Below are positions 7,986 to 27,290 of a stretch of DNA of 29,245 nucleotides, one piece after another. This DNA comes from Candidatus Lloydbacteria bacterium RIFCSPHIGHO2_02_FULL_50_18 (GTDB taxonomy: Bacteria > Patescibacteriota > Minisyncoccia > Phycocordibacterales > UBA6899), in contig MHLM01000007.1 in the NCBI GenBank assembly GCA_001821395.1, positions 1 through 29,245 on the forward strand, in the 5' to 3' direction. The stretch's first letter is position 1. The number at the start of each line of letters is the position of its first letter. The notes below the pieces were generated by a model that saw only the letters and a list, made by a program, of their open reading frames with translations, was not told where the DNA came from and did not search any database. The position numbers were made by a program, and so were the translations under genes.

Positions 7986-10181
7986 ATGGATGATAAATTT
8001 CTGACCCCATACAAGCCCGAGGAGACTGAAGAGAAAGTATACAAAGCGTGGCTCGATTCGGGAGTATTCAATCCCGATATTTGTATACAAAAAGGAATCA
8101 CAAAAAATACGGCGGAAACTTTTTCAATGGTCCTTCCTCCGCCAAACGTTACCGGCATACTGCACATGGGTCATGCGGCAATGATCGCGATCGAAGACAT
8201 CATTGTGCGATACGAGCGCATGAACGGAAAAAGAACACTCTGGATCCCCGGGACTGACCATGCCGCGATCGCAACACAATCAAAAGTCGAAAAGATCATC
8301 GAAAAGGAAGGGACGAACAAACATAAACTGGGGCGTGATGCATTCATGATTCGCGTTGAACAGTTCGCGCAAGAAAGTCATGACACGATCGTCAACCAAA
8401 TAAAAAAAATGGGCGCATCGATTGACTGGAGTCGCGAAGCGTTTACGCTTGATGAGAAGCGTAGTCTTGCCGTCCGCACCGCATTCAAGCGCATGTATGA
8501 CGATGGACTCATCTATCGCAGCGCACGCATTGTGAACTGGGACCCGAAAGGACAGACGACGATCTCTGATGATGAGATCGTTCACGAAGAGCGAAAGGCG
8601 ACGATGTATACATTTCGCTATTGGAAAGACTTCCCTATCGCGATCTCAACCACGCGTCCTGAAACAAAAGTCGGCGATGTTGCGGTCGCAGTGCATCCCG
8701 ACGATGCGCGCTACAGCAAGTTTGTCGGACAAATTTTTTCCGGTGAGTTCTGCGGTGTGCCGCTCCATATCACTATTGTTGCAGATGAGTCCGTCGAGAA
8801 AGATTTTGGTACCGGTGCACTTGGTGTCACTCCTGCACACAGTCAGATCGACTGGGAGATCGCTGCGCGGCACAAGCTTTCTCACAAGCAGGTCATCAAT
8901 GAGTATGCGAAGATGATCGTCGGCGACGAACGCCTCATGGGGAAGAAGGTCGGTGAGGCGCGTACCGCCATTGTTGAATGGATTCGCGCAGAGGGTCTTA
9001 TGGAAAAAGACGAAGAAGTGACACAAAATGTCGCAACGGCAGAGCGCACCGGCGGCATTATCGAGCCGCTTCCAAAATTGCAGTGGTGGATCGACGTTGA
9101 AAAAAATTTCGCCATGAAGGGCGATGGGATACCCGGTATCACAAAGGGGCAAAATGCCACACTCAAGGAAGTGATGACTAAGGCGGTCGCAGCGCATGCG
9201 ATCACCATTCTCCCCGAGCGTTTCGAAAAAACGTACTTCCAATGGATCGATAATCTTCGCCCATGGTGCATATCGCGTCAGATATGGTATGGACACCGAA
9301 TCCCCGTCTGGTACAAGGACGAAGAAGTATACTGCGGGATAGAAGCACCAACAGGAGCGGGGTGGACCCAGGATGAGGATACCCTCGATACGTGGTTCTC
9401 TTCCGGACTCTGGTCATTCTCGACCCTCGGTTGGCCGAACATGGAGGCCAAAGATCTCCAGGACTATCATCCGACCAACCTGCTTGAAACAGGGTATGAC
9501 ATCATTTTCTTTTGGGTTGCACGCATGATACTCATGTCCGGATATCACCTCGGCACCGTCCCCTTCCGCACCGTGTATCTTCATGGACTTGTCCGAGACG
9601 CAAAAGGAAAGAAGATGAGCAAGTCACTCGGTAATGCGATCGACCCACTTGAAATGATCGAAAAATATGGCGCGGACGCGACGAGACTTTCTGTCATCAT
9701 CGGGGCAGGACCGGGTTCGGACGTCAGCCTTGCTGAAGACAAAATACGCGGCTATAAAAAATATACGAACAAGATCTGGAATATCGCTCGCTTCATTCTT
9801 TCAAATACTGAAGGGGTGGACTTGTCAACAAAACCGACGCTCACCGCTCGTGAGGTAGAGATATTGTCTGAATTCAATGCGGTGATCGCATACACCGATC
9901 TGCACATACGAGAATTCAAGCTCCACCTGGCGGGAGAAAAGCTCTACGACTACACGTGGCATATCTTTGCGGATATTATTCTCGAAGAGAGCAAGGAAGC
10001 GCTGCTTTCCGATGATAGTGCCGTAAGTACTTCACGCAAATGGCTACTTCGGCACATCTTTGAAGAACTATTAAAATTGCAACACCCCTTCATGCCATTC
10101 GTAACCGAAGAGATATGGGGTTCACTCCCAAACAGAAAACAACCGCTCATTATTACTCCGTGGCCAAAGCAGGCAATATAA
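7986..10181 (+). CDS. valS: valine--tRNA ligase (ValRS), lacking the usual C-terminal coiled-coil domain
   Basis: PPPNVTGILHMGHA (ValRS-type HIGH region), KMSKS, WCISRQ, and an editing-domain segment. The 731-aa protein ends right after the anticodon-binding region. Confidence 0.8.
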   Translation: MDDKFLTPYKPEETEEKVYKAWLDSGVFNPDICIQKGITKNTAETFSMVLPPPNVTGILHMGHAAMIAIEDIIVRYERMNGKRTLWIPGTDHAAIATQSKVEKIIEKEGTNKHKLGRDAFMIRVEQFAQESHDTIVNQIKKMGASIDWSREAFTLDEKRSLAVRTAFKRMYDDGLIYRSARIVNWDPKGQTTISDDEIVHEERKATMYTFRYWKDFPIAISTTRPETKVGDVAVAVHPDDARYSKFVGQIFSGEFCGVPLHITIVADESVEKDFGTGALGVTPAHSQIDWEIAARHKLSHKQVINEYAKMIVGDERLMGKKVGEARTAIVEWIRAEGLMEKDEEVTQNVATAERTGGIIEPLPKLQWWIDVEKNFAMKGDGIPGITKGQNATLKEVMTKAVAAHAITILPERFEKTYFQWIDNLRPWCISRQIWYGHRIPVWYKDEEVYCGIEAPTGAGWTQDEDTLDTWFSSGLWSFSTLGWPNMEAKDLQDYHPTNLLETGYDIIFFWVARMILMSGYHLGTVPFRTVYLHGLVRDAKGKKMSKSLGNAIDPLEMIEKYGADATRLSVIIGAGPGSDVSLAEDKIRGYKKYTNKIWNIARFILSNTEGVDLSTKPTLTAREVEILSEFNAVIAYTDLHIREFKLHLAGEKLYDYTWHIFADIILEESKEALLSDDSAVSTSRKWLLRHIFEELLKLQHPFMPFVTEEIWGSLPNRKQPLIITPWPKQAI

Positions 10182-10222
10182 GACCGAGAGTGCACGATGT
10201 TATTTGTAAAAACCAATAGAGA

Positions 10223-10975
10223 ATGACCGAGATAACGCCAAGTATGGTATTTATCGCTCTGTTAGGGGGGATACTCCCCTCGGTCTTTTGGCTTTGGTTC
10301 TGGCTGAAGGAGGATGATATCCATCCCGAGCCGCGCGGACTGATCATACTCTCTTTTCTTGTGGGAATGCTCGCAACAGCACTTGCATATCCGATCGAAC
10401 AATTCATTGCAGTGAACGTGAACGGAAGCGACCTTCTCCTGCTCTCTCTCTGGGCGATCACGGAGGAAGTACTCAAATTCCTCGGCATTTATTTGATCGC
10501 TCTTCGCAGTAGATACTTCGATGAACCGATCGATGCGGTCATCTACTTCATGACTATCGCACTCGGATTTGCAGCGCTCGAAAATACGATGTTTCTGTTC
10601 AATCCACTTGTCGGCGGCGACACGATGGCGACACTCCTCCTTGGTAATTTCCGATTTATCGGCGCAACGCTGCTTCATGTCGGAGCAAGCGGATTCGTTG
10701 GTGTGATGCTCGCACTCTCATTCTATGAAGTTCGTGCAAAAAGACGCATTGCAAGCATCGTGGGACTCCTTGGCGCGATCACGTTGCATACCTTATTCAA
10801 CTTCTCTATAATTATGAGCGAGGGGGCGTACTTATATCAAATATTCGTCGGATTATGGATATTTGTTATCGGAATCTTGTTTTTCTGTGAAAAGATCAAG
10901 AAACTCGCACCACGAAGTCATGTCGAATATCCGCATACCGGCATCGTTATCAATATCCCCCATAAACTTCTCTAA
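10223..10975 (+). CDS. PrsW-family intramembrane protease (M82-like)
   Basis: Polytopic membrane protein with EExxK (ITEEVLKF), FAALE, LLHVGASG and HTLFN motifs characteristic of PrsW proteases. Confidence 0.55.
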   Translation: MTEITPSMVFIALLGGILPSVFWLWFWLKEDDIHPEPRGLIILSFLVGMLATALAYPIEQFIAVNVNGSDLLLLSLWAITEEVLKFLGIYLIALRSRYFDEPIDAVIYFMTIALGFAALENTMFLFNPLVGGDTMATLLLGNFRFIGATLLHVGASGFVGVMLALSFYEVRAKRRIASIVGLLGAITLHTLFNFSIIMSEGAYLYQIFVGLWIFVIGILFFCEKIKKLAPRSHVEYPHTGIVINIPHKLL

Positions 10976-10977
10976 AT

Positions 10978-11496
10978 ATGGCAGAACGCAAAAAAACTTT
11001 TCTTGAGCGACTCACCGGAACAGTGGTCATTAATGAAAAAGAATCTTTCCCGTCTCACGAGGTTGACATGAAAAAAGAGCAGGAAGAAATATACCACACC
11101 AACGTCGGAACACCTGGTAACGAGAGCGAATCCGCGGAAGACGATGTGGAGTCATTCGATGAAGAGGAGGTCGCCGGACTTGCCATCGATATGTACGAAA
11201 CCGACAATGAACTCATCATCCAAAGCATGATCGCCGGCGTCGCTCCGGAAAATCTACACATCGCGATCACGCGAGACCTCGTCACCATCACCGGTAAACG
11301 CATCGCACCGGGGGTTCCGGAGCATGACTACATCACTCAAGAGCTCTATTGGGGAGTATTTTCACGAGCGATTGCATTACCATTCGAGATCGATACTGAC
11401 GGAGCGGAAGCGGTTGAAAAATTTGGACTACTTATCATTCGACTTCCAAAGATCGACAGAAACAGGGCACAGGAGTTAAAGGTGAAAACGATCTGA
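10978..11496 (+). CDS. Hsp20/alpha-crystallin family small heat-shock protein
   Basis: Alpha-crystallin domain signature (AIDMYETDNELIIQ..IAGV....I..TGKR...F.R.IALP..ID). Its start is 2 nt after the prsW-like stop. Confidence 0.7.
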   Translation: MAERKKTFLERLTGTVVINEKESFPSHEVDMKKEQEEIYHTNVGTPGNESESAEDDVESFDEEEVAGLAIDMYETDNELIIQSMIAGVAPENLHIAITRDLVTITGKRIAPGVPEHDYITQELYWGVFSRAIALPFEIDTDGAEAVEKFGLLIIRLPKIDRNRAQELKVKTI

Positions 11497-11523
11497 CCTT
11501 CGGCTCATATTTGAAATAGCCGT

Positions 11524-11558
11524 CAAAAAAATTCCCGAATCTTCATTCGGGAATTTTG
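11524..11558. terminator. bidirectional rho-independent terminator
   Basis: A6, stem attcccgaa(11531-11539)/ttcgggaat(11546-11554), then TTT. It lies between hsp20 (+) and a convergent minus-strand ORF. Confidence 0.6.
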
Positions 11559-11957
11559 CTAATTTGGATCCTGCGTCGGAAGCGAATTGCCGTATAAACT
11601 GCGATACTCGACAGGGCGACCGGACTCTCTCGCCCGAGTGATCCCCAGTACCATACCGGCAAAGATACCCCGATCGACATAGACCGCCGTTGCATTTGCA
11701 TGCTCACCCCATGCCAATCCTGCGCTGATCCCCAGCTCACGATCCACGGGATCCTTATCGTCAAGGACCCCTTGTTGAGTGTAGAGCAAATGACTTGCAT
11801 AAGGCGCCTCGCGGCGCATAAGTGCATCATGCATACACGCTCGAGCATACGTGATATTTGCTTCCAGTTCTTCGTAACACGCACCCCGATAGGGACTCTC
11901 AATGATAACGAGTCGAAAAGATCTCATTCGAAACCCCACGGTAATCTCTTTTATCAT
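11559..11957 (-). CDS. hypothetical protein; faint resemblance to DUF4406/nucleoside 2-deoxyribosyltransferase-like fold
   Basis: 132-aa ORF. The LVIIESPYRG segment resembles the YxxGP N-terminal motif of that fold, but this is weak. A TAAATT then 6 nt then ATG arrangement sits at 11957. An alternative ATG at 11927 follows a GGGG Shine-Dalgarno-like site. Confidence 0.4.
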   Translation of the reverse strand: MIKEITVGFRMRSFRLVIIESPYRGACYEELEANITYARACMHDALMRREAPYASHLLYTQQGVLDDKDPVDRELGISAGLAWGEHANATAVYVDRGIFAGMVLGITRARESGRPVEYRSLYGNSLPTQDPN

Positions 11958-12042
11958 CCTAACAATTTACCCACGAAACACCAGAAAACCTCAATCGCTG
12001 TGCTTTTCAACCCTTCAAACTCTTTCAGAGTTTGTCCTCGGC

Positions 12043-12069
12043 AAAAAACACCCTTACGGGTGTTTTTTT
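12043..12069. terminator. rho-independent terminator downstream of tRNA-Phe
   Basis: A-run, stem acaccc(12048-12053)/gggtgt(12058-12063) with loop ttac, then T7. It is enclosed by an outer inverted repeat, gtcctcggca/tgccgaggac, that copies the tRNA 3' end. Confidence 0.6.
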
Positions 12070-12073
12070 CTTG

Positions 12074-12146
12074 TGCCGAGGACCAGGGTTGAACTGGTGA
12101 CCCCTCGCTCTTCAGGCGAATGCTCTACCAACTGAGCTACCTCGGC
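12074..12146 (-). tRNA. tRNA-Phe (GAA)
   Basis: The reverse complement folds as a cloverleaf: GCCGAGG TA GCTC AGTTGGTA GAGC A TTCGC CTGAAGA GCGAG GGGTC ACCAG TTCAACC CTGGT CCTCGGC A. The anticodon is GAA and CCA is not encoded. Confidence 0.85.
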
Positions 12147-12286
12147 AAGAGAGGAATAGAATGAGGATATCATATATACTCATTTTTTCCGAACGCCGCC
12201 GTAGGTATGTTTCATACCTCGGCGTTCTACGTATTACTAATCGGTTCAACCCTGAGGTCGCAACGATACGAGCCAGAATATCCTAT

Positions 12287-12571
12287 TTAGCGAACTTTAT
12301 CAAGAAGACCCTGGAGATTCGGTAAAGACGCGGCTCCCGAATCAAGTGTCGAAATAGTATGCACGAGTTTTTGGTATGTCTCAAGATATTTCACCAAATA
12401 GGGCTGTACGAAGTAATACGACCAACCCAATACACCAAGGATCACGAGCCAATAGATAAAGGTAAATATCCGCCCCCACAGCATGCTTCGGTGCATTCCA
12501 CGGAGAATGCGGTTATTTTCCTTTTCGATATCGAGAAGTTTGGTCAATGTGTCATGGTCTGTTTCAGGCAT
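12287..12571 (-). CDS. hypothetical small membrane protein
   Basis: One predicted TM helix (IFTFIYWLVILGVLGW). The ATG at 12571 is preceded by TATACT and 6 nt, a leaderless-type arrangement. The ORF-track start at 12577 is a TTG. Confidence 0.45.
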   Translation of the reverse strand: MPETDHDTLTKLLDIEKENNRILRGMHRSMLWGRIFTFIYWLVILGVLGWSYYFVQPYLVKYLETYQKLVHTISTLDSGAASLPNLQGLLDKVR

Positions 12572-12614
12572 AAACAAAGTATATCAAGAAATAATTGCAC
12601 AACAAACCCTACGT

Positions 12615-12638
12615 GGTGCCCCTGGCCGGAATCGAACG
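12615..12638 (-). pseudogene. tRNA 3'-terminal fragment (T-loop plus acceptor 3' strand plus CCA)
   Basis: Reverse complement reads GTTCGATTCCGGCCAGGGGCACCA. It is similar to, but not identical with, the 3' end of the adjacent tRNA-Arg, and no matching 5' part lies within 80 nt. Confidence 0.45.
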
Positions 12639-12659
12639 CACTATTTTTCCTGCAACAAC

Positions 12660-12734
12660 TGGTGCCCCCAGCGGGAATCGAACCTACATCTACTCCTTAG
12701 GACGGAGCTGTTCTATCCATTGAACTATGGGGGC
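12660..12734 (-). tRNA. tRNA-Arg (CCT)
   Basis: 75-nt cloverleaf: GCCCCCA TA GTTC AATGGATA GAAC A GCTCC GTCCTAA GGAGT AGAT GTAGG TTCGATT CCCGC TGGGGGC A CCA. The anticodon is CCT, CCA is encoded, and the T-stem has one A-C mismatch. Confidence 0.75.
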
Positions 12735-12894
12735 ACAAGTTGTTGCAGGAAATAAAATTAATACAAGAATCAAACTGACATCTCCGCCCTACTGGCGCTG
12801 TACACCTTTTGGCTTTTTGTTTCACTTCGTTCACAAAACGACTCAAAAGGTCTTGCGGTGTGGCCCCATCGGAATGGGTTCCCAAAGCCACACC

Positions 12895-12945
12895 TCACCT
12901 TAGGACGGAGCTGTTCTATCCATTGAACTACAGAGGCGACGAGCG
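12895..12945 (-). pseudogene. tRNA 5'-half fragment (acceptor 5' strand through anticodon loop), paralogous to tRNA-Arg(CCT)
   Basis: 33 nt (D-arm to anticodon loop) are identical to tRNA-Arg(CCT). The acceptor strand is GCCTCTG rather than GCCCCCA. The sequence diverges after the anticodon loop and there is no T-arm. Confidence 0.45.
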
Positions 12946-12962
12946 TGATTTCCCTCAAGAAT

Positions 12963-12990
12963 ATAAAAGTCCACAATTGTGGACTTTTAT
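12963..12990. terminator. palindromic bidirectional terminator
   Basis: aaaagtccaca at tgtggactttt is a perfect 11-bp stem flanked by an A-run and a T-run. It lies downstream of the glutaredoxin-like gene on the minus strand. Confidence 0.55.
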
Positions 12991-13019
12991 ATAGTATGTT
13001 TTCCTACTCTCTTTCGCAA

Positions 13020-13268
13020 CTATGCGGGAACGATACCCAGTAACTCTTGGAGTTTCGATTTATTGAATCCTACTATAATATCCTTATCAATGATGATGAC
13101 GGGGACCCCCATTTGTCCGCTCTTCTCAATCATCTCCTGACGCTTCGCAAGATCTTTCCCTACGTCAAATTCCTGGAATTCGACATTATTTTTTTGAAAA
13201 AATTCTTTCGCCAGCTTGCAATAACCACATGATTCTGTCGAATAAATTTGAACGCTTTTCATAGGCAT
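13020..13268 (-). CDS. glutaredoxin/NrdH-like thioredoxin-fold protein
   Basis: 82-aa ORF with a CGYC redox motif near the N-terminus (VQIYSTESCGYCKLAKEF) and a conserved GVPVIII..D..IVGF segment. Confidence 0.75.
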   Translation of the reverse strand: MPMKSVQIYSTESCGYCKLAKEFFQKNNVEFQEFDVGKDLAKRQEMIEKSGQMGVPVIIIDKDIIVGFNKSKLQELLGIVPA

Positions 13269-14010: not shown

Positions 14011-14283
14011 TGTTAGAATCAGCGATATCCCTGAAGTAGAAACGACGACGAGTGCGCTAAGGCACAAAAAATCTCATTCTATGCGCGTAGGCAAAGCCTC
14101 CCGCACGTCGGTCCTCGAATCAGAGCCGAATGAAGCGGAACGATTTCCCTCAAATTACACGAGGTGCGGAATCAATGCGGGTAAGCAAAGCTTTCCTCGC
14201 ACGGCAAGCTTCGGAAATGGAAATCGTTGCAAATCACAAAAAAACAATAAGAACGAGATATCTCGTTCTTATTGTTTTTTTGT
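14011..14283 (+). ncRNA. candidate structured ncRNA (unknown family) with duplicated hairpin modules
   Basis: An extended -10 TGTTAGAAT (14011-14019) leads to about 250 nt of non-coding sequence. Two related modules (about 14084-14150 and 14174-14230) differ by a compensatory change in one stem-loop (aggc-aaa-gcct versus aagc-aaa-gctt). The region ends at a strong terminator. Confidence 0.3.
14236..14283. terminator. strong bidirectional terminator (17-bp perfect palindrome)
   Basis: A7, then aacaataagaacgagat|atctcgttcttattgtt (14243-14276, no loop, centre gatatc), then T7. It sits between the candidate ncRNA (+) and tRNA-Gly (-). Confidence 0.65.
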
Positions 14284-14312
14284 GATTTGCGGACTTCCGC
14301 TTCACTCAACTC

Positions 14313-14386
14313 TGGTGCGGGTAGGGAGAATCGAACTCCCGTCTCAACCTTGGGAAGGTCGCATTCTACCACTAAACCATACCCGC
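14313..14386 (-). tRNA. tRNA-Gly (CCC)
   Basis: Reverse complement GCGGGTA TG GTTT AGTGGTA GAAT G CGACC TTCCCAA GGTTG AGAC GGGAG TTCGATT CTCCC TACCCGC A CCA. The anticodon is CCC and CCA is encoded. Confidence 0.8.
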
Positions 14387-14794: not shown

Positions 14795-15088
14795 GACTAT
14801 AGTATACCCCGTAGTGAGCCCTCACCGATAATCGAGGGTTGTGTATTTCTCGCCTAGCCAGTAAAATATCGATCGCATACAAGCTCTGGCGCATTAGGTC
14901 TACTACGAGGTATACTATTGAACAATCACCAAAAACATATGTCACTATTTCTCCGAGAAAAAAAGCACAAAAAATGGTTCAATCTTGTCTGGACCATTGT
15001 GGGTATCATGGTCATAAGTAGTATGGTACTCCTCTATCTCCCCGCCTTCCTCTAATAATACCATCTCCAAGAAACCTCTGAACACCAA

Positions 15089-15185
15089 GTCCGGCAAATT
15101 TCGGCTCTGTCATCAGGAAAATATGAAGTCCTATCTCGATAGGTCTTCATATTTTCCTGATGCCCCGCTCGAAATTTTCTCGGAC
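15089..15185. repeat. 97-nt imperfect palindrome with a 52-nt near-perfect core
   Basis: catcaggaaaatatgaag t cctatc tc gatagg t cttcatattttcctgatg (15111-15162, 24 bp paired) is extended by gtccg...cggac arms. It lies in a 540-bp non-coding interval. Confidence 0.55.
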
Positions 15186-15252
15186 TTATGTCCAGACCTT
15201 TCTTGTCGATGGTATAAACTTGATATTCTCGATGCAGTGCGAGACGGCAAGT

Positions 15253-15298
15253 AAAATACCCACAAATTGTACATAAATGTACTACTTGTGGGTATTTT
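15253..15298. terminator. lepA terminator (nested hairpin)
   Basis: Outer stem aaaatacccacaa(15253-15265)/ttgtgggtatttt(15286-15298). Inner stem gtacat aa atgtac. It is U-rich on both strands. Confidence 0.6.
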
Positions 15299-23833: not shown

Positions 23834-24001
23834 TATGTCCTCCTTGTAGTCAAACAAACTATCCATCCACAATGCTACGCCATTCATGTTTCTTGTAAAG
23901 AAAAATGATGTCATCGTCGATGAACCACGATCCGATCGGAACGACTCTTCTGATGCGTATCTTGATGATCAAACCAAGAAAATTTGAGGGTGATTCACAT
24001 A

Positions 24002-24029
24002 TTGTATTTTTATAACTTCCGAGTAGTAT
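24002..24029 (+). promoter_or_regulatory. promoter of small membrane protein gene A (TTGTAT, 16 nt, TAGTAT)
   Basis: It is conserved in position and sequence with copy B (TTGCAT, 16 nt, TAGCAT at 26800-26827). It lies 30 nt upstream of a GGAGG Shine-Dalgarno site. Confidence 0.4.
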
Positions 24030-24059
24030 GAAAACTGGATATTTTTCATGGAGGTAAAA

Positions 24060-24236
24060 ATGAGTTTCGAAACCGCTGCGGGCCTCTGGCTCCTGATAGG
24101 ATTGATCTGTGTGATTATGATCGCAAAAACACAAGATAACTCCAATAAGGATGATCTCTTGTTTAGCATCTTCTTGATCTTTTTCGGCCCCTTAAATCTG
24201 CTCATCCTGCTACTGATCCGTAGCTGTCGCGATTGA
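24060..24236 (+). CDS. small two-helix membrane protein (paralog A; possibly PLDc_N-like)
   Basis: 58 aa: MSFETAAGLWLLIGLICVIMIAKTQ..LFSIFLIFFGPLNLLILLLIRS. It is paralogous to the ORF at 26858. A GGAGG site lies 7 nt upstream. Confidence 0.5.
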   Translation: MSFETAAGLWLLIGLICVIMIAKTQDNSNKDDLLFSIFLIFFGPLNLLILLLIRSCRD

Positions 24237-24249
24237 CTGGTGATAAAGA

Positions 24250-24285
24250 AAAGAACCAAGACAAGAACCTTGGTTCTTTATTTTT
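24250..24285. terminator. terminator (ccaag-core hairpin)
   Basis: gaaccaag(24253-24260)/cttggttc(24269-24276) followed by tttattttt. It lies between convergent genes. Confidence 0.6.
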
Positions 24286-24315
24286 ACCGTCCCAAAAGAT
24301 TACTATGAGATAATC

Positions 24316-26290: not shown

Positions 26291-26562
26291 GAGCTGGACT
26301 CCTTTGGTTGGTTGATGAAAAAGAACCGTGATGAGCGTTGACCCATCACCCACCATATTCAGCTTTTTCAACAATTTGTCAATTCGACGCACGGCACACT
26401 GAAAACCCAGGTGGTACTCATAATATTATCCGACGGCTACCTTTGAAGTTACGTGAAACTGACGAAGGGACGGTTGTCTCGCATTGCACAAAGACGAACT
26501 TTGCATGGAAACCTGCGGTCGAGAAAACAATTGTGCCCTATGAGTATGTGGAGATAAAAACG

Positions 26563-26602
26563 AATTACCTTATAATACGCCATGGCGTATTATAAGGTAA
26601 TT
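26563..26602. repeat. 40-bp perfect palindrome (20-bp arms, no spacer)
   Basis: aattaccttataatacgcca|tggcgtattataaggtaatt. Each arm contains a TATAAT box. It lies in a 465-bp intergenic region. Confidence 0.6.
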
Positions 26603-26799
26603 ATTATCGGAGAGGTTGGGGAAAGAAAACAGGAAGAAAAAATATGTTATTCATCCTTTTTTTCACCTTGAGAGTTGAATTGCGTATTTCATCTGCCTTC
26701 CATTTACATTTGCCCTACTGAGCTAAATGATTGAAGTAAGCCACCCAAACAGGCGGCTTTTTTATGATCAAACGACAGAACACGAACGTGATTCGCATA

Positions 26800-26827
26800 T
26801 TGCATTCTTGGTTCTTCCGAGTAGCAT
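26800..26827 (+). promoter_or_regulatory. promoter of small membrane protein gene B (TTGCAT, 16 nt, TAGCAT)
   Basis: Paralogous to the promoter at 24002-24029. Confidence 0.4.
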
Positions 26828-26857
26828 GAAGCTCGGGTCTGTTTCTGGGGAGCAAAA

Positions 26858-27046
26858 ATGAGTATCGGTAGCATCACTGGTATCTGGCTGTTAATCGGTT
26901 TGATATGCTCGTTCGTGATCGCAAGGGCGCATGGCCCTGCTTTGCGTATCATGAGAGAGGAACCTGGGACTACTGCTGTTTTGGTTCTTCTCGGTCCGAT
27001 CAGCCTGCTCGTTCTTTTGCTGATGTGTTTCATGAGCGATGGATAG
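26858..27046 (+). CDS. small two-helix membrane protein (paralog B)
   Basis: 62 aa: MSIGSITGIWLLIGLICSFVIARAH..AVLVLLGPISLLVLLLMCF. The upstream 70 nt are about 75% identical to the copy A leader. A GGGGAG Shine-Dalgarno site is present. Confidence 0.5.
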   Translation: MSIGSITGIWLLIGLICSFVIARAHGPALRIMREEPGTTAVLVLLGPISLLVLLLMCFMSDG

Positions 27047-27056
27047 ACATGGTAAT

Positions 27057-27086
27057 ACAACCAAGGCAAATGCCTTGGTTTTTTCA
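27057..27086. terminator. bidirectional terminator (ccaagg-core hairpin)
   Basis: aaccaaggca aa tgccttggtt (27059-27080) followed by tttt. It overlaps the stop codon of the convergent minus-strand ORF. Confidence 0.6.
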
Positions 27087-27290
27087 CAACGGGAGATCTT
27101 CTGTTCGATTCCTGTCGTCCAACTCCCTACTTTTCTCCTTTTTTGCCTTGAGGGATCTGAGTCTGCTCTCCGCAAGCGAGGTCCAGCTGAGCACCCCGAT
27201 AGCAGAACGCACCGCCTCCGTCTCCTCCTCATTCAGAACCCCCTTCTCAATAAGCCCCAAGAGTACCTCGATCGCCTTTTTATCGTCCAT
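27084..27290 (-). CDS. hypothetical small protein
   Basis: 68 to 74 aa (MDDKKAIEVLLGLIEKG...), charged C-terminus. The start is uncertain: 27290 is preceded by TACATT and 6 nt, and 27308 by GAGGG. Confidence 0.35.
   Translation of the reverse strand: MDDKKAIEVLLGLIEKGVLNEEETEAVRSAIGVLSWTSLAESRLRSLKAKKEKSRELDDRNRTEDLPL

Follow-up and report, generated by a model that had tools for sequence, protein, structure and literature searches.

A perfect 40-bp palindrome in a Lloydbacteria contig and a family of symmetric DNA sites associated with genes for a short PaaX-like protein

Candidate Phyla Radiation (CPR) bacteria, or Patescibacteria, make up a large share of bacterial diversity and, to our knowledge, almost nothing has been established about their gene regulation. 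A contig of Candidatus Lloydbacteria bacterium RIFCSPHIGHO2_02_FULL_50_18 (MHLM01000007.1), the 29,245 nucleotides of which are referred to here as the window, encodes RNase P RNA, three tRNAs, LeuRS, LepA, MurJ and TsaD and is chromosomal DNA from a small-genome bacterium. One of its intergenic spacers holds a 40-bp palindrome (26563-26602) whose arms meet without a spacer, and the question raised by the locus is what such a long and perfect symmetry serves. The original prediction, made from the letters of the window, took it for the operator of a dimeric regulator overlapping divergent promoters, with a TATAAT -10 box in each arm, or for a site that forms a cruciform. Here, we report that the palindrome is conserved and belongs to a CPR-wide family of symmetric sites associated with the genes of a short PaaX-like protein, and we weigh the operator reading against its alternatives.

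The palindrome at 26563-26602 and its conservation

The palindrome consists of AATTACCTTATAATACGCCA followed directly by TGGCGTATTATAAGGTAATT, two arms of 20+20 nt with 100% complementarity and an inter-arm gap of 0 nt; no strand is assigned to it or to its parts. Its symmetry ends sharply at the borders (g at 26562 versus a at 26603). The chance expectation of a perfect 40-bp palindrome in 29,245 bases was calculated as approximately 29245 x 4^-20 = 3e-8, its half-site arose in 0/100 shuffles with up to three mismatches allowed, and the single DNA strand of the site has a fold of -16.5 kcal/mol (z = -7.4). Five independent assemblies agree at 100% identity over the spacer 26291-26858, and k=31 Logan contigs terminate within the palindrome with a 30-nt overlap. 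This is the behaviour of a true palindrome in a de Bruijn graph and hence the feature is not an assembly artefact. The perfect, spacer-less 20+20 symmetry described in the original prediction holds in all five assemblies, whereas the 465 bp given for its intergenic region had to be revised: the called genes stand 567 bp apart (26291-26857), and 465 bp fits the distance to the start of the duplicated-cassette homology described below (~26761).

At the middle of the site lies TACGC-N4-GCGTA (26576-26589), the minimal centre common to all subtypes of the family, variants of which stand beside PaaX-like genes. It is enclosed in the family core ATAATACGC-CATG-GCGTATTAT (26572..26593), which defines a CATG-centred subtype found at genome and metagenome loci. 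The lineage-specific left outer arm AATTACCTT (26563..26571) is mirrored by the right outer arm AAGGTAATT (26594..26602); it is common to a related locus, L014, and almost fully to a Lloydbacteria locus, L024, where its counterpart reads CTACCTT. TATAAT occurs at 26571-26576 (plus strand) and, mirrored, at 26594-26589 (minus strand). The window has no second copy of the half-site, even at three mismatches, and TACGC-N4-GCGTA occurs in it at this single site. The central CCATGG also supplies an ATG on each strand, giving mirror open reading frames (ORFs) at 26582-26671 (plus, 29 aa) and 26449-26583 (minus, 44 aa) that each begin MAYYKVI; these by-products of the palindrome are probably spurious.

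The gene to the left of the spacer encodes a 306-aa protein (minus strand) with only four homologues among 5.8 billion proteins, and these allowed the spacer to be compared between relatives. At L014, where the homologue is 54% identical, the contig starts inside the same palindrome and all 29 of the 29 available bases are identical; C(G/A)TTTTTA is also kept directly after the palindrome. The ~150 nt beyond have undergone rearrangement, large indels included, and conservation returns with the 306-aa gene's promoter and leader. The far side of the L014 site was not recovered, as the contig ends within the palindrome. A second homologue (L013, 59% identical) has no palindrome. An intact palindrome next to a scrambled spacer indicates purifying conservation, and this comparison of sequences leads us to read the identity in L014 as selective retention of the exact sequence and not of a mere hairpin.

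The 306-aa gene family also has a conserved upstream unit of its own, composed of TTGACAAA(A/T)TGT, a hairpin with compensatory changes, a T-run, CAACCAACCAAAGGAG and the ATG (window 26291-26390, minus strand; L013 960-1070; L014 130-226; L017 7650-7760). The hairpin was scored as terminator-like by the terminator scan, and the unit looks like a leader or attenuator.

A family of palindromes with duplex-level symmetry

The 20-nt core TAATACGCCATGGCGTATTA was found at 10 loci in a species-representative genome collection, compared with ~0.5 expected (596e9/4^20, calculated). Nine of the 10 lie in CPR metagenome-assembled genomes (MAGs) of Saccharibacteria, Jorgensenbacteria, Lloydbacteria and unclassified Patescibacteria, with up to three sites per MAG and, at one locus, two within 2.8 kb. 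All of the CPR core sites are spacer-less perfect palindromes with arms of 15-27 nt. The original prediction was to be given up if the site neither occurred elsewhere nor was conserved in relatives; it clearly does the one, at these 10 loci, and is the other, in the 29 bases of L014. The half-site search by which a regulon was to be defined had a divided outcome, with no second copy in the window and recurrence of the core at the 10 genome loci and at no fewer than 119 loci in metagenomes.

The metagenome figure of at least 119 loci was obtained with the central 4 nt of the core left free, and the family statistics given below rest on the matches listed, namely 132 sites from 109 distinct contexts, for most of which the source is an aquifer. 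Family members share a ATAATACGC-N4-GCGTATTAT core with symmetric, lineage-specific outer arms, for a total of 36-46 bp. Among the matches listed, the centre is TATA in 39, CATG in 21 and GATC in 11, the remainder being single-mismatch hybrids such as GATA and GGTC. The outer arms vary among genomes and slightly among the copies of one genome, while each copy remains symmetric; each lineage-specific outer-arm family recurs at many unrelated loci. In the Hainich lineage, one outer arm, ATACACAAAT, occurs with all three centre types (TATA, CATG and GATC).

A viral collection returned one chance match to the 20-nt core, within a tail-fibre coding sequence. Rfam searches of the site and related loci gave nothing at the gathering score and, by E-value, merely sub-threshold noise (miRNA, GcvB). 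Nothing relevant was found in 8 million full texts on the motif, on PaaX in Patescibacteria or on CPR palindromes and transcription-factor motifs; the family is previously undescribed. The k=31 Logan contigs of L004, L009, L011, L012 and L014 all end inside the palindrome. Family palindromes thus systematically break short-read CPR assemblies, which matters for genome reconstruction.

Across 110 sites, Watson-Crick pairing between the arms is 76-93% at distances of 12-18 from the centre and 41-55% at 19-23, with background values beyond. The two central positions pair with each other in 70% of sites versus 6% expected, and arm mismatches are not biased towards wobble pairs (18:25:67 versus a random 1:1:4). 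An RNA hairpin would accept wobble pairs and has no reason to maintain a self-complementary loop. The lack of wobble enrichment and the self-complementary centres therefore indicate that it is duplex DNA, or a hairpin formed by DNA, that is under constraint.

This bears on the reading of the site as an intrinsic, possibly bidirectional, terminator or as an RNA-stability hairpin for a minus-strand transcript arriving from the right, which we regard as quite improbable. The window's copy would suit such a role: it appears in the minus-strand scan with an 18-pair stem followed by CGTTTTTATC, this T5 run (26556..26560, minus strand) is retained as CATTTTTAC in L014 and as TATATTTTTG in L024, and many family sites follow stop codons. 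However, most members lack a T-run on either side, the stem is AT-rich and intolerant of wobble pairs, the supposed loop is self-complementary in most copies, and many copies abut start codons or sit between divergent genes. Gene calls in the window also show no minus-strand gene ending just upstream of 26563-26602. As a reading for the whole family, the terminator was rejected on the T-runs, the wobble pairs and the centres; for the window's copy, with its retained T5, it keeps a small probability.

Symmetric sites fell within ORFs in 5 of 60 cases, and the intergenic sites (28 tandem, 14 convergent and 13 divergent) matched the intergenic bases available (59/22/19%), with no preference for promoter-bearing spacers among the family sites. 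A -35 hexamer 16-18 nt from the TATAAT-like box of the arm was no more frequent in the family than in a displaced-window control. With proportional placement, no -35 enrichment and few T-runs, the family behaves as neither promoters nor terminators.

Two elements of the original prediction find no support. TATAAT is not a feature of the family, many members carrying AATAAT or CATAAT, and sigma-70 -10 boxes in the arms were rejected against the displaced control. The overlap with divergent promoters also fails, because a TTGACA promoter and a leader, conserved separately, serve the 306-aa gene from ~200 nt away, the -35-like hexamer at the palindrome is on the plus strand only (TGGAGA, 4/6 matches, compared with 1/6 on the minus strand), and family sites are as frequent between convergent as between divergent genes. 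A symmetric promoter that acts without any protein of its own, with the TATAAT of each arm firing inward to give back-to-back transcripts, is for us very improbable. It would account for TATAAT in both orientations and for TGGAGA-16-TATAAT on the plus strand; it is contradicted by the missing minus-strand -35, the control result, the variant hexamers and the sites between convergent genes, and it leaves the symmetric, lineage-specific outer arms unexplained.

A short PaaX-like protein and the palindromes bracketing its genes

There was no shared neighbour gene among the 10 genome loci, and a protein link appeared only in the larger metagenome set. An all-against-all comparison of the ORFs near the sites gave a sole recurrent neighbour family, a ~190-aa protein encoded 11-156 nt from the palindrome at 16 loci (~40% mean identity). 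Its N-terminal half is winged-helix-like and is followed by PaaX_M, the 'central Cas2-like domain' (Pfam PF20803, E 1e-16 to 1e-23), with no match to PaaX_C. Among 120 non-redundant immediate neighbours, the PaaX_M protein tops the families (9/120), and no transposase or recombinase is among the leading ones.

The neighbour families also speak to the reading of the palindromes as targets of a site-specific recombinase or telomere resolvase (dif/Xer-like or tel-like). Protelomerase targets are typically perfect spacer-less palindromes, and the form of the sites agrees with this; the N15 telO sequence may also resemble them loosely. However, several copies occur per genome and even per 3 kb, the leading neighbour families include no recombinase or resolvase, the contigs run on with unrelated sequence on both sides, and the architecture of a Xer site (11-6-11, asymmetric arms, one per replicon) is not that of the family. 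We consider this the least probable of the explanations, and a very remote one.

Homologues of the short PaaX-like protein are numerous in the CPR (2,242 at E <= 1e-10), with several paralogues per MAG, and carry the names 'Cas2' or 'PaaX' in public sources. Both names are rejected by the scores of curated models, as the PaaX equivalog TIGR02277 gave 38-48 bits against a cutoff of 264.55 and the Cas2 model gave a borderline 22-27 bits against 24.5, with only its first ~40 residues aligned. The best Protein Data Bank matches in Foldseek were E. coli W PaaX (8a39) and Rv0674 (3kfw), followed by many Cas2 chains, with low TM-scores. A sequence search of the same database with one protein gave no hit, and a profile search gave weak matches to Rv0674 and PaaX. 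The protein resembles Cas2 in its ferredoxin-like C-terminal domain, in the Cas2-type beta-1 Asp (FDI) and in its QxSVF/W motif, which it retains as LQxSVW; in the profile alignment both the Asp and the motif are absent from PaaX and Rv0674. It differs from Cas2 in its fused winged helix and in the short extent of the model match, and the genes tabulated for the six contexts that were fetched include no Cas1 or CRISPR-associated family. The winged-helix sequence changes in step with the arm type, a correspondence that is confounded by phylogeny.

The association was also approached from the converse side, with six PaaX-like genes chosen solely for their long contigs and regardless of the motif. 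A strong inverted repeat was present within 130 nt upstream of three of the first four PaaX-like genes, compared with 4 of 79 other genes at the same loci, and two genes fetched later fit the bracketing pattern. In approximately 15 of 19 distinct PaaX-like genes, a pair of related palindromes brackets the gene. The upstream one ends -12 to +124 nt from the ATG, often abutting it, and the downstream one starts 13-128 nt past the stop codon. The unit of palindrome, winged helix-turn-helix (wHTH)/Cas2-like gene and palindrome spans ~675-840 bp. All of the bracketing palindromes are spacer-less (36-56 bp) and most have the TACGC-N4-GCGTA centre; their sequences are varied, e.g. ...ACTTTACGCTA meeting TAGCGTAAAGT... 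and ...CAAAGCCA meeting TGGCTTTG... at the centre. At L022, the PaaX-like gene has CCATGG-centred palindromes, the subtype of the window. An extended -10 (TGGTATAAT) directly adjoins the upstream palindrome at L035, and at L152, L155, L159 and L161 a (T)TGTCAAT -35-like box lies at the left edge of the palindrome and the ATG abuts the palindrome. In these five cases the geometry places the upstream copy over the core promoter of the gene, the classical layout of an autorepressor.

E. coli PaaX uses its N-terminal winged helix together with a dimerisation domain to bind the operator TGATTC-N27-GAATCA, which is symmetric over 39 bp, and steric hindrance is the means by which it represses its own promoter (PMC9493321). 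The CPR sites resemble the PaaX operators (Pa, Pz and Px) in their long span (36-46 versus 39 bp) and in having specificity in the outer ends, and the proteins are alike in combining a winged helix with a Cas2-like dimerisation domain, by Pfam and by fold. As in PaaX autorepression, the site lies over the regulator's own promoter at the level of the family, whereas the window's copy has no regulator gene. The CPR protein differs from PaaX in its length of ~190 aa, its lack of a C-terminal ligand-binding domain and its score far below the TIGR02277 cutoff. No paa genes are present in the window or in the fetched contexts. The sites are perfect over 36-46 bp with a conserved centre in place of an arbitrary N27, many of them are solo, and the gene is bracketed on both sides.

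We therefore come to the reading that we favour and to which we give about an even chance: the palindrome at 26563-26602 would be a solo site bound by a dimeric short PaaX-like protein whose gene lies elsewhere and which probably represses a short transcript next to the site. The family sites would be the cognate sites of a dimer of the ~190-aa protein, with its N-terminal winged helix and its Cas2-like (PaaX_M) dimerisation domain, and for the window the gene would lie elsewhere in the genome. By analogy with E. coli PaaX, the two winged helices may read the lineage-specific outer arms (ATTACC...GGTAAT here) while the body of the dimer spans the conserved centre. The dimeric operator of the original prediction has thus outlasted its divergent promoters, since the site is conserved, recurrent and symmetric at the level of the duplex, and palindromes of its kind lie on the promoters or starts of genes for a dimeric-type protein with a wHTH and a Cas2-like domain.

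What the protein would act on in the window can be proposed from nearby elements. A promoter-like TGGAGA-16 nt-TATAAT on the plus strand (26549..26576) has its -10 inside the left arm and matches the consensus at 10/12 positions, a weak pointer given a family with no -35 enrichment; judged from these two hexamers, transcription would start by the centre of the palindrome. A putative 25-codon ORF, MLFILFFTLRVELRISSAFHLHLPY, preceded by AGGAAG (26644..26721, plus strand), is the candidate product, and a terminator-like hairpin, AAGCCACC-caaaca-GGCGGCTT followed by a T run (26738..26763, plus strand; -12.7 kcal/mol, z = -3.0), may end the transcript ~180 nt from the palindrome centre. The consensus terminator scan passed over this hairpin because its stem has one mismatch, and the putative 193-nt transcript folds as RNA no better than its shuffles do (z = -1.0). 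Bound protein would cover TGGAGA-N16-TATAAT and the start point, so that a short transcript from 26583 to ~26763, holding the 25-codon ORF and the terminator, would be repressed or blocked, and possibly also read-through into the adjoining 62-aa membrane-protein gene.

Several observations weigh against the operator reading. Its sites show no preference for promoter-bearing spacers and no excess of -35 hexamers, and the neighbouring genes, whether those of CATG-type sites or all of them together, share no functional theme. The window's arm sequence was seen in no CATG-type site beside a PaaX-like gene, tblastn with the PaaX-like family gave no match in the 29-kb window, and the AlphaFold2 model of the protein is moderate (pLDDT 61). 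Perfect symmetry over 40 bp exceeds the needs of a plain operator, as does the further palindrome that follows the stop codon in nearly all PaaX-like genes. The same is true of the copy-specific symmetric extensions in one arm family: 9-10 of 18 copies with the ACACAA arm have a C-rich symmetric extension of at least 3 nt past the shared arm, an effect that is limited to this family, the pooled test for such extensions being not significant (p = 0.99). These unexplained features suggest one of three things: that cruciform or hairpin DNA is selected for, that a process such as template switching at hairpins makes the sites symmetric, or that a selfish cassette is bracketed by palindromes and has solo copies as its footprints.

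The last of these possibilities leads to the explanation that we rank second and hold to be unlikely on present evidence, namely that a selfish module, mobile or addictive, has left the site behind as a solo remnant or uses it for landing. If the brackets recombined, or a possible Cas2-like nuclease were active, solo palindromes with no regulatory role for their neighbours would be left or created. The two-sided bracketing of most of the genes would follow, as would the two copies at L159, which are exact reverse complements in the manner of terminal inverted repeats. The paralogues within single MAGs and the >2,200 homologues agree with such a module. So do the unrelated contexts, including a ribosomal-protein cluster between L2 and S19, the presence of solo sites in every spacer type at the frequency given by the bases available, the perfect palindromes with copy-specific extensions, and the retained Asp (FDI) and LQxSVW, in which the protein is unlike PaaX and Rv0674. 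However, no direct repeats were found as target-site duplications outside 11 bracketed modules, no transposase or recombinase family stood out among the 120 neighbours, and presence/absence polymorphism was not found. The full identity of the window's site at the orthologous position in L014 speaks for selection and not decay, and upstream palindromes coincide with promoter elements, as operators would.

A more specific form of this idea is that the bracketed wHTH-Cas2-like genes are a new selfish or mobile CPR module, in which the module's ~40-bp palindromes are the substrate of its sequence-specific Cas2-type nuclease, their symmetry is kept and extended by hairpin or template-switch repair, and 26563-26602 is a footprint or landing pad. 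We consider this a rather doubtful proposal; if true, no free-living protein with a defined DNA target would be nearer to Cas2 than these.

Short intergenic palindromes of species-specific sequence in many copies, with a gene flanked by inverted copies, also recall the REP/REPIN-RAYT systems. The CPR palindromes differ in having no GTAG-type head, in being perfect and spacer-less where REP sequences are imperfect hairpins, and in a core conserved across classes; family copies number at least 3 in one MAG. Their associated gene encodes a wHTH and Cas2-like protein and not an HUH/Y1 transposase as RAYT does, and no Y1 transposase family is among the top 25 of the 110 families formed by the 120 neighbours.

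The remaining rival is that the window's site serves another dimeric regulator and that the likeness of the CATG subtype to PaaX-like sites is coincidental. This would fit the finding that 0 of ~14 CATG-type sites with the ATAATACGC core adjoin a PaaX-like gene. Coincidences do occur, as an unrelated soil TetR operator fits the same 18-nt pattern. Against this, CATG sites match TATA and GATC sites in the 9-nt core, arm architecture, length and symmetry, the three centre types share the outer arm ATACACAAAT in the Hainich lineage, and the PaaX-like gene of L022 has CCATGG-centred palindromes. On balance we find it improbable. The soil operators (contigs L034, L071, L090, L100, L140 and L147) carry the same ATAATACGC-N4-GCGTATTAT pattern between the TTGAC -35 and the -10 of the promoter of a TetR gene (TetR_N + TetR_C_13), a textbook operator of a dimeric repressor. 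They differ from the CPR family in their arms of ~11 nt, non-symmetric centres, regulator family and phyla, and the match is a sequence coincidence amplified by orthologous contigs. LexA was set aside as the binder, Patescibacteria LexA being reported with a direct-repeat motif.

Surroundings of the window's copy and meaning for the CPR

The genes flanking the palindrome (306 aa on the minus strand; ORFs of 62, 74, 153 and 101 aa rightward) have no Pfam families. To the right lies one copy of a duplicated cassette (23960-24290 and 26761-27090), composed of ~100 nt of upstream sequence, a small membrane ORF of 58-62 aa and a terminator hairpin; the two copies are 71% identical in DNA and 37% in protein. 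Nothing in the paralogous cassette A corresponds to the segment 26603-26765, and the stretch with the palindrome and the 25-codon ORF adjoins copy B alone.

Further left, window 7986-13265 (LeuRS, PrsW, HSP20 and a glutaredoxin-like ORF) is syntenic with the Taylorbacteria locus L159, where a bracketed PaaX-like gene adjoins glutaredoxin. The synteny indicates that the host organism is close to lineages possessing the short PaaX-like protein. In several CPR relatives, variable genes interrupt the conserved ribosomal-protein cluster by separating L2 from S19. At L161 (1154-4500), the insert holds a palindrome-bracketed PaaX-like gene and two hypotheticals, and homologues of the window's 306-aa protein lie near the interruption at L015 (5128-6306) and L017 (3851-8657).

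The window contains other palindromes and repeats. A 62-bp perfect spacer-less palindrome (14229-14290; GCAAATCACAAAAAAACAATAAGAACGAGAT followed by ATCTCG...) lies 22 nt past the 3' end of tRNA-Gly(CCC) (14313-14386, minus strand) and is unrelated in sequence to 26563-26602. One of 32 bp (12961-12992; ATATAAAAGTCCACAA followed by TTGTGGACTTTTATAT), also perfect and spacer-less, is located between the glutaredoxin-like ORF (13020-13262, minus strand, CGYC motif) and a partial tRNA-Arg copy. A family palindrome occupies an analogous place at the Patescibacteria locus L028, between tRNA-Gly(CCC) and tRNA-Arg(CCT). A 33-nt stretch of tRNA-Arg(CCT), ccttaggacggagctgttctatccattgaacta, is directly repeated 203 nt apart (12695-12727 and 12898-12930, found by eye) and could be left over from an integration into the tRNA gene or a duplication there. 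Just upstream of lepA are two inverted repeats, one at 15058-15215 (78-nt arms, 74% complementarity) and the other at 15253-15298 (22-nt arms, 91%), each with a 2-nt gap. At L156 (13493-14081), a perfect 15+15 palindrome (ATATATCTAAAGTAT followed by ATACTTTAGATATAT) stands ahead of a 90-aa gene and then a ParE/YafQ-type toxin gene; it is probably a toxin-antitoxin autoregulatory operator, and it indicates that perfect palindromic operators are common in these genomes.

If the binding of the short PaaX-like protein to these palindromes is true, the family would be among the first directly testable CPR-wide regulatory or DNA-organising systems, with >2,200 homologues and hundreds of sites. Its recognition element would be unusually long and perfect, and its protein is one that is currently mis-annotated as 'Cas2' or 'PaaX'. 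The protein, which unites the architecture of PaaX with the conserved catalytic-site residues of Cas2, bears on the relationship between the two, and the bracketing of its genes by palindromes raises the possibility of a mobile ancestor.

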